A DNA stretch of 64,000 nucleotides from an uncultured Nitrospiraceae bacterium. GTDB lineage: Bacteria > Nitrospirota > Nitrospiria > Nitrospirales > Nitrospiraceae. The stretch spans positions 512,001 through 576,000 of the forward strand of contig CAWJWJ010000002.1 of NCBI GenBank assembly GCA_963846575.1, given 5' to 3'. Position numbers: made by a program. Positions 42,001 through 45,000 of this stretch are shown one piece after another. Position 1 is the stretch's first letter. Each line of letters starts with the position of its first letter.

Positions 42001-45000
42001 GAAGGCAAAGCCCTCCTCCTGTAAGGGGCGCTATCTCAAGAGTGTGACGATGTCGAGCACCATGGGGCCGGGGGTAAAGCTGGATCCTGTGGCCTTGTCG
42101 AAGTTGTGGAGTTGAGAACAGTCAGGTTCTCAGTAAGGGGAAAGGCATGAAGAAAGAAGAGAAGGCAACAGCGATCGGTGAATTGACGGAAAAATTCGGT
42201 CGCGCCCGCTTGGCTATTCTGACGGAATGCGCCGGAATGCCCGTCAATCAGATGACCGAGTTGCGCAGGCAGTTGCGCGGAGCCAAGGCAGAATACTGCG
42301 TGATCAAGAATACCCTGGCCGTGCGCGCGTCGGCCGGTACGATCCTCGCGGATGCCAAGCCCCATTTCAAGGGACCGACGGGCCTGGTGATCGGGTATGA
42401 CGATCCGGTGCTTCCGGCGAAAATTTTGCGGGACTTTATTCTGGCCGAGAAGCGAAGCGAGAAGATCAAAATCACCGTCGGAGTGCTTGAAGGTAAGCTT
42501 GTGCAGCCAGCGGAACTCGCGGCGATTGCGCAGTTGCCCAAGAGGGAAGTGCTGATTGCCATGCTGCTATCGGCCATGCAGGGTCCGATTCGCGGCGTGG
42601 TGTACGCGTTAAGCGGAGTGTTGAGCAAGTTCGTACGAGTCATTGCAGCCATTCAGGATAAAAAGAAAGGGGAGGGCGACATGTCAGCAGCAGCAGGAAC
42701 GAAATTGTCACAAGATGAAATGATCAAGGCAATTGAGGGTATGAGCGTGTTGGAATTGGCCGACCTGGTCAAGGGATTGGAGACACGTTTTGGGGTGACG
42801 GCAGCGGCCCCGATGGCCATGGCAGCACCGGCCGGCGGTGGAGCGGCGGCAGCTCCCGCAGAGGAAAAGACGTCCTTTGACGTGATTTTGGTCAGTGCTC
42901 CGGCGGACAAGAAGATTCAAGTCATCAAGGTCGTGCGCGAGCTCACCAGTCTCGGTCTCAAGGAAGCGAAGGACTTGGTCGAAGGTGCGCCGAAGCCCGT
43001 CAAGGCCGGTGTTACAAAGGAAGAGTCAGACGCCATGAAGAAGAAGCTCGAAGAAAGCGGTGCCAAGGTCGAAATCAAGTAATTCTGCGCTGATCTGCGG
43101 TGTGCGGGGTTGTCCGGTGGGATGGCGCGATGCCGTCATCTCCTTATGAGCTTGGAGGGCTAACGAATGTCGGAATCGACTCTTTCGGAGTTTGTCGAAC
43201 GCAAAGATTTTTCTCGGATTCGTACGAGCATCGACATTCCCGATCTCATTGAGATCCAGAAGCGGTCCTACGAGGAATTCCTCCAGATGGAGGTCGAACC
43301 GGATCGTCGCAAGGATCAAGGGTTGCAAGCCGCGTTGGCCAGCGTCTTTCCCATTACGGATTACAACAACACCGCGGCGCTCGAGTTCTCCAATTATTCT
43401 TTGGGGACCCCGAAATACGACGAGCGGGAATGTCTTGAGCAGGGGATGACCTATGCCGTTCCCTTGAAATTGCGGGTTCGGCTGATTGTGTTCGACAAGG
43501 AAGACAAGGGGCCGAAAAAGAAAGTCCTCGACGTCCGGGAGCAAGAGGTCTACGTCGGGGAGCTTCCCCTCATGACCGAGCGCGGCACGTTTCTGATTAA
43601 CGGCACCGAGCGAGTGGTGGTCAGTCAGTTGCACCGCTCGCCTGGCGCATCGTTTACCCATGATAAGGGGCGGACACACGCCAGCGGAAAGGTATTGTTC
43701 TCCGCACGGATCATTCCGTATCGTGGATCTTGGCTCGATTTCGAATTCGATGCTCGGGATATCCTATATGTTCGAATCGATCGACGCCGGAAGATGCCGG
43801 CCACCATCCTGCTGAAGGCTTTCGGCTATAGCACGGATGACTTGCTGCGCATGTATTATCCGGTGGAGGAGATACGTGTTTCCAAAGGGAAACTTTATCG
43901 AAAGCTCGATGCTGAAATCCATCATGGCTTGAAGTGTACGACGGAAGTGACGGAGAAAGGCGGGAAGGAACCTCTCGTCCGCGAAGGCGCCAAGCTGACG
44001 AAGGTTTTGATCGCCAAGCTCAAGGCGGCCGGAATCAAGGAGATTCCTGTGACCCCGGCCGAACTCGTCGGGCGTGCGGTCCTGACGGAGCTCGTAGATG
44101 CTGGCAAGAAGCAGTCGTTGGCCGAAAAGAATCAGCGTCTCACCGAAGAGATTCTGGAGAAGATACTGGACAGCGACATCGATGAATTCAAGGTCATTTA
44201 CCTGGATACGACGAATGCCACCCTCGTCATCCTCGACACCCTGGATATGGAGCATACCGTCTCGAAGGAAGAGGCGATGGTGGAGATTTATCGCCGTCTT
44301 CGGCCGGGCGAGACGCCCTCTGTGGAGACCGCGCGAGCTCTGTTCGACAATCTGTTTCTAAGTCCCAAGCGGTATGATTTGTCGCCGGTCGGTCGGTTGA
44401 AGCTTAATAAGAAGTTGGGCCTCGATTTTGCGCTCGAACAGCGAACCTTGACTGCTCAAGACATCGTGGAAGTCGTGCGCTATCTTGTGAATCTGAAAAT
44501 TGGTCGCGGTGAGATCGACGACATCGACCATTTGGGTAACCGCCGCGTACGGTCCGTCGGCGAATTGCTGGAGAATCAGTTCCGACTTGGTCTCGTTCGA
44601 ATGGAGCGGAGCATCAAGGAGCGTATGAATCTCCTGGACATGGAGACGGTGCTGCCCCATGACCTCATCAACGCTAAGCCGGTCGTGGCGGCGGTGAAGG
44701 AGTTTTTCAGCAGCAGTCAGCTGTCCCAGTTCATGGATCAAACCAATCCCCTGGCTGAAATCACGCACAAGAGGCGCCTCTCGGCCCTTGGGCCGGGTGG
44801 TTTAACGCGCGAGCGTGCCGGTTTCGAAGTGCGAGACGTGCATCCTTCCCATTACAGCCGTATCTGTCCGATCGAAACGCCGGAAGGCCCGAACATCGGC
44901 CTCATTACCTCACTGGCCACCTATGCGCGTATCAACGAATTCGGTTTCATCGAGGCGCCCTACCGGAAGGTGATCAAAGGCCGGGTCAGCGATGAGTTGG

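Follow-up and report, generated by a model that had tools for sequence, protein, structure and literature searches.

Textbooks describe the bacterial bL12 stalk as a non-covalent complex in which one uL10 carries bL12 dimers that can exchange, the two proteins being the products of coupled genes. In its canonical form, uL10(bL12)4–6 (a pentamer in Escherichia coli, a heptamer in the Thermotoga maritima structure 1ZAV), the two proteins are encoded by rplJ and rplL in the order rplK-rplA-rplJ-rplL-rpoB, and bL12 has its own Shine–Dalgarno (SD) sequence and start. Two further systems are relevant here. In-frame internal starts occur in E. coli infB (IF2 alpha and beta), clpB and cheA, in which one frame with two starts gives a long and a short product that share their C-terminus and assemble together. 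Archaeal and eukaryotic uL10 (P0) bears, at the base of the stalk, a covalent factor-binding C-terminal tail resembling P1/P2, proteins that are, to our knowledge, not homologous to bL12. According to PMC1635324, bL12 acts as dimers and is present in six copies in T. maritima and T. thermophilus and in four in E. coli, while work cited in PMC13001810 indicates that in E. coli rplJ and rplL are coupled and that excess uL10 is degraded.

The DNA considered here (the window, 64,000 nucleotides from an uncultured Nitrospiraceae bacterium) keeps the usual gene order, with rplK at 40956–41378, rplA (uL1; identified as an ORF and by Pfam) at 41423–42115 on the + strand and the start of rpoB at 43167, but the canonical layout of two ORFs with a stop after rplJ is absent. 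Instead, a single frame at 42147–43082 (+), designated rplJL, runs through 311 codons without a stop, with uL10 followed in frame by full-length bL12 (311 aa, 32.9 kDa). Both proteins are complete and exceed their family cut-offs. Pfam places Ribosomal_L10 at residues 1–97, L12_N at 189–235 and the L12 C-terminal domain at 244–311. The uL10 half reaches 161.3 bits with the NCBIfam bacterial uL10 model NF000955 (cut-off 85; residues 4–173) and 91.2 bits with PF00466 (cut-off 22.8), whereas archaeal uL10 models give 20–25 bits against cut-offs of 331–547. The bL12 half reaches 150 bits with the NCBIfam L7/L12 model (cut-off 84.4; residues 185–311) and passes the cut-offs of PF16320, PF00542 and TIGR00855, with dimerisation domain, hinge and C-terminal domain all present. 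A tblastn search of the whole genome returned one match per half, both at this locus, which is thereby the only rplL of the genome; these results uphold the first-pass annotation, which had described one 311-codon uL10–bL12 ORF as the sole rplL. The window also holds two tuf copies encoding an identical protein (38331–39536, after a tRNA cluster, and 54642–55853, after fusA), a common arrangement.

The architecture of the fused product can be followed along the frame, all features lying on the + strand. The start of the long product, an SD-like stretch with the ATG of uL10, occupies 42134–42149. The uL10 part (residues 1–174; 42147–42668), delimited by NCBIfam and by alignment with 1ZAV, is predicted by AlphaFold2 (70 rows, mean pLDDT 79) to adopt the uL10 fold and to end in a long helix (residues 133–175) that would bind bL12 dimers. 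A linker predicted to be flexible (residues 175–188; 42669–42710) joins this helix to the first bL12 helix and is modelled as a coil of low confidence (pLDDT <50 at 176–187). The bL12 part (133 aa; 42681–43082) comprises, from Pfam, NCBIfam and the model, a dimerisation domain with two predicted helices, an Ala/Gly hinge (216–241) that appears disordered, and the C-terminal factor-binding domain. The junction reads AAA AAG AAA GGG GAG GGC GAC ATG TCA GCA, in which a putative internal SD (42666–42676) is hidden inside Lys-Gly-Glu-Gly codons and the ATG at 42681–42683 (Met179) is the predicted start of a free bL12 of 13.5 kDa. The uL10 helix aligns without gaps with that of T. maritima 1ZAV over the bL12-binding part, where E. 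coli uL10 is ~10 residues shorter, in agreement with the long Thermotoga-type helix proposed earlier; by analogy, its length alone suggests that six bL12 copies may be carried here.

The internal start was analysed in 102 fused loci of the order Nitrospirales (50, 34, 13 and 5 from families f1 to f4), the ATG being located by position. The codon is ATG in all 102 loci, and none of its three bases changes anywhere on the tree, where four-fold sites average 29.6 changes each. Four codons upstream of the ATG, Gly175 is encoded by GGA or GGG in 88/88 cases, whereas each of 18 other glycine columns also uses GGC and GGT. In family f3, 12 of 13 loci carry the SD in a different codon register (CCG AAG GAG GAN), which changes the peptide from KKGEGDM to KPKEESM; there the SD nucleotides have outlasted the peptide. 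Pairing of the internal SD with the organism's own 16S tail has a mean energy of −10.0 kcal/mol, stronger than the −8.4 kcal/mol of the rplJ start and the −5.1 kcal/mol of 595 other in-frame ATGs. The ten codons that follow the internal ATG have the extreme four-fold composition of the ORF (GC 0.33, A 0.52), compared with GC 0.46 and A 0.34 at the true rplJ start and mostly 0.6–0.8 and ~0.1 elsewhere, and 40-nt mRNA segments, computed for every third locus, fold least stably at the two starts (−2.5 to −3.0 and −2.7 kcal/mol). Finally, the residue after the internal Met is Ser, Ala, Pro, Thr or Val in 102/102 loci, as against 274/603 for other Met residues; these are residues that permit Met removal. 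One test was negative: synonymous recoding of the seven upstream codons, locus by locus, gave equally strong SDs in 20–38% of draws (median p 0.20–0.38, not significant), because Lys, Gly and Glu codons are purine-rich anyway. The weight therefore falls on the column-wise tests, in which related loci are not independent. Three of the five f4 loci (L049, L051, L053) carry another in-frame ATG three codons ahead of the bL12 start, together with the weakest SD of the order (−7.1 kcal/mol).

A conserved internal SD and start under nucleotide-level selection, the marks of in-frame internal initiation, are thus found at this junction, bearing out the earlier claim that Met179 and an SD in the linker codons are kept across the order. 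Taken together, these features suggest that selection acts on the initiation-site nucleotides and not on the peptide that the linker codons spell. The first-pass reading, a covalent uL10–bL12 chain accompanied by free bL12 from internal initiation, gains support from these signals and is in our judgement very probably correct, with both products deduced from the DNA. The opposite view, that only the fusion is made and that the stalk consists of fusion chains or has a single bL12, accords with the single product listed by gene callers and UniProt; it leaves all the second-start signals and the full-length bL12-binding helix without a role, conflicts with the action of bL12 as dimers in four or six copies (PMC1635324), and is highly unlikely.

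A more serious competitor is a polyprotein that would be cut in the exposed linker to give the usual non-covalent stalk, internal initiation supplying most of the bL12 or none. The linker is predicted as a disordered, Lys-rich coil, and cleaved precursor fusions of ribosomal proteins are known: ubiquitin–eS31 is one that is cut, and bL27 is cut by Prp. Against this stands the variation of the junction peptide (KKGEGDM, KPKEESM and KKGMGEM in the order; GGSSM and EGGSQM elsewhere) while the SD nucleotides are kept; a peptide that differs between families and lineages may still suit a cleavage of loose specificity. In addition, cleavage alone would yield uL10 and bL12 at 1:1, with uL10 wasted, and would leave the codon and folding signals unexplained. 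We regard this polyprotein as improbable.

Under internal initiation, then, ribosomes starting at 42147 and reading through the linker would produce the covalent uL10–bL12; the frame is free of stops, and an intact chain is the expected outcome. Ribosomes bound by the SD at 42666–42676 would start at the ATG at 42681 and produce free bL12, as the DNA-level selection implies, whose Met would be removed before Ser, Ala or Pro. With uL10 seated on 23S rRNA, its long helix would hold two or three bL12 dimers. Judging from the position of the helix end, the tethered bL12 domain, on its linker of ~13 residues, would form the outermost dimer together with a free copy, the remaining sites being occupied by further free copies, giving, by reference to the T. 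maritima structure, one uL10–bL12 with five (or three) free bL12. Because rplJL lacks a stop, ribosomes that finish uL10 have no chance to restart on bL12, which must be initiated separately; the greater strength and lack of structure of the internal site agree with this. How much of each product is made would accordingly depend on the relative strength of the two starts and not on stop-and-restart.

Evidence on expression comes mainly from N. moscoviensis, whose published proteome (PMC9381531, Table S1) corrects the earlier statement that no proteomic data exist. Its rplJL entry (312 aa, 'Multifunctional fusion protein') has 69–90 spectra and, in the first sample, an iBAQ of 1.09e9, which ranks third among 47 ribosomal-protein rows (four rows that are not ribosomal proteins having been dropped) and exceeds the median of the remaining 46 by a factor of 2.2. 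Tryptic peptide counts predict a ratio of 1.0 for the fusion only, 2.1 for four bL12 and 2.9 for six. The observed ratio fits extra bL12 without being decisive: it is weak evidence because single-copy ribosomal proteins span 12-fold in iBAQ, two of them exceeding rplJL, and it does not distinguish initiation from cleavage. It lies nearer to four copies than to six and, given the wide scatter, is compatible with either. The table holds one rplJL entry, without peptides, which leaves room for a cut polyprotein. A term search of the N. marina proteome supplements gave no match, and two RNA runs contained 5–6% of words, their assembled contigs being mostly from other organisms.

Regulatory signals were sought around the locus. 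The promoter and terminator scan performed at chance level and gave no promoter-like site on the + strand, and no Rfam match to the L10 leader (RF00557) occurs in window 37500–44000 at E ≤ 1; 17 other loci gave one weak, sub-threshold L10 leader match. The rplA–rplJ spacer is 31 nt here (42116–42146) and 10–148 nt across the 102 loci. Among split genomes of the same class, some have a spacer of 266–289 nt (one with a weak L10_leader match) and others one of 20–72 nt. It seems that some members of the class lost the leader independently of the fusion. A tie between fusion and leader loss was considered and set aside as unproven, split outgroups such as L041 (20 nt) and L033 (36 nt) being short-spaced as well.

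The fusion extends across the order. A match was obtained in 148/151 genomes of the Nitrospirales, and in 147/151 the frame is free of stops across residue 179; in G032 the match ends with the contig at residue 173. Three assemblies, G093 (99% complete), G038 (80%) and G068 (82%), have neither an rplJL match nor an L12 family match; for G093, which belongs to the same genus, a gap in the assembly at the operon is the most likely cause. All four families are fused, f4 in 5/5 loci, and four named Nitrospira/Nitrospirae records are fused alike, with proteins of Nitrospira defluvii, N. japonica and Nitrospira sp. among the relatives. A sequencing or assembly artefact would find its precedent in some fused-looking database proteins with garbled junctions (P0055, P0072, P0117, P0151), which were left out; with fusion in so many genomes, often within one contig, and clean junctions in all 102 loci, its probability is negligible. 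Outside the order, the phylum sample supplied 209 of its 301 genomes, 198 of them with a match. Among the matches listed, all 46 that span the junction carry stops and the remainder are separate for each half; 300 weaker matches lie beyond these. When 13 outside genomes were re-read, including 10 of the 11 of the same class, all proved split. Within the phylum sample, the picture drawn earlier is thus confirmed on both sides, order-wide fusion in every family, f4 included, and split genes in other orders. The gene trees call for caution on one point: L048, a split locus of another class, sits on a long branch among the Nitrospirales rows; on the gene tree alone, a single origin of the order's fusion is therefore unproven.

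The earlier restriction of the fusion to this order does not hold, as the same design occurs in other clades. A search of 1.84 billion representatives gave ~20 further full-length uL10–bL12 chains (32–47% identity), and a profile built from 21 such chains retrieved at least 120 proteins, all those listed combining the three Pfam domains in a single chain. Six proteins whose junctions are garbled (P0055, P0072, P0101, P0117, P0129, P0151) were excluded as probable read errors. Source names of the fused proteins include Ca. Fervidibacter, Armatimonadota, Dehalococcoidia, Chloroflexi and Bipolaricaulia. At the DNA level, fusion was found in 5 of the best 30 loci of Chloroflexota (251 genomes; L203 has two stops elsewhere in the match), in 17/20 loci of the class of G361 (31 genomes; L244, L245 and L250 being split) and, in two clades, in 12 of the best 30 loci of the phylum of G364 (121 genomes). 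The last is probably Armatimonadota, judging from 86% identity to a Fervidibacter protein; its Fervidibacter-like clade is fused in 10/10 loci. The Chloroflexota tally covers three unpublished genomes, on whose sequence no claim made here depends. In all 34 fused DNA loci outside the Nitrospirales, the junction holds an in-frame ATG or GTG preceded by an SD of −9.2 or stronger, a support that is partly circular because the start was picked by best SD energy; for 6/34 of the picked starts the following residue is not small. In the tree, five fused groups each fall closest to split kin of their own phylum or class, and an AU test with 17 fused and 17 split rows rejects a single fused clade, and with it a single origin (p 1.7e-34). 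The fused design of the Nitrospirales is met again in at least four further clades. In the class of G361 (L231–L250), bL12 has a Lys/Glu-rich N-terminal extension of 15–25 residues, far longer in the split L250.

This class also offers a natural control. Its fused loci read AGA AAA GGA GGT TCA TCT ATG, and the split L245 reads AGA AAA GGG GGT TAA CTT ATG, L244 being alike: between SD and ATG, both split loci have TAA where their fused kin have TCA. The same SD and ATG here open a separate rplL, which supports the start, and the tether can evidently be absent in close kin. The split rows L244, L245 and L250 branch from within the fused rows, a placement of modest support (89/88 and 82/79), so that reversion to the split state is likely. 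The opposite passage can be pictured from six split Armatimonadota loci, in which the uL10 stop, or a second TAA, stands in frame directly before the SD, such that one base change would be expected to yield a fusion. The fusion would thus have arisen whenever the in-frame uL10 stop, situated immediately upstream of the rplL SD or within it, was lost, and this on several independent occasions.

Such an easy origin also favours a nearly neutral tether, in which losing the stop carries no cost because the internal start does the work; this view concerns persistence and is compatible with internal initiation. Fused and split loci are mixed in the class of G361, and most bacteria do without the fusion (75/80 named loci are split). 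In the Nitrospirales, uL10 would still terminate at a normal length (172–178 in outgroups), with the SD no weaker, if a stop arose anywhere in codons −7 to −5; the 102 loci contain none, whereas a neutral model predicts ~27 stop-making changes at codons −7/−6 and ~16 at −5 (~43 in total). The model uses four-fold-site rates; scaled to the 15 observed first-position changes, the expectation falls to only ~3, a rough figure that makes the evidence for selection on the tether moderate. Fixation across four families and in the Fervidibacter-like clade likewise argues against neutrality. We give a nearly neutral tether close to even chances and lean slightly towards an adaptive one. The fuller proposal, repeated evolution of a stalk in which one bL12 never leaves, kept under selection in the Nitrospirales and the Fervidibacter-like clade, with a two-start gene setting the stoichiometry, is tentative, its chances falling somewhat short of even.

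Compared with the systems described above, rplJL is a genuine variant of the classical assembly, found throughout the order and evolved more than once. It shares with the canonical pair the gene order, the two complete proteins and the separate SD and start of bL12, and with T. maritima the helix length; it differs in having no intergenic stop, in one bL12 that would be covalently tied, in the impossibility of coupling by termination and restart, and in that no L10 leader was found. The short forms of infB, clpB and cheA are truncations, whereas rplJL unites two ancestrally separate core ribosomal genes and its short form must outnumber the long one. P0, for its part, carries only a hinge and tail, with no whole stalk protein and no internal start. 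The fusion as such is already flagged in databases ('Fused 50S ribosomal proteins L10 and L7/L12 (modular protein)', CBK41052.1, SLM48502.1, BFU95999.1; UniProt rplJL), always with one product. The internal start, the range, the repeated origin and the mechanism are absent from the entries consulted. No published account of the fusion was found in the portion of the open literature covered, and term look-ups in PMC3578206, PMC13001810, PMC3353972, PMC12342949 and PMC1635324 found no mention of it.

In an entire order of nitrifiers of global importance, as in at least four other clades, one stalk arm seems to be attached covalently, with the remaining arms supplied from a hidden start. These groups offer natural material for asking how many bL12 arms are needed, whether exchange is needed and how a 1:4–6 ratio is reached without translational coupling. 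If the proposal is true, these stalks would be a natural bacterial counterpart of the P0 tail and a ready system for testing bL12 exchange. There is also a consequence for annotation: fused genes carry labels for L10 alone, for L7/L12 alone or for a hypothetical protein, and proteome databases lack free bL12. Among the proteins retrieved, a distinct group (P0009, 593 aa; P0020, 953 aa; P0039; P0046) has 6–8 tandem bL12 C-terminal domains without a dimerisation domain, P0020 bearing in addition a long helical-repeat tail.
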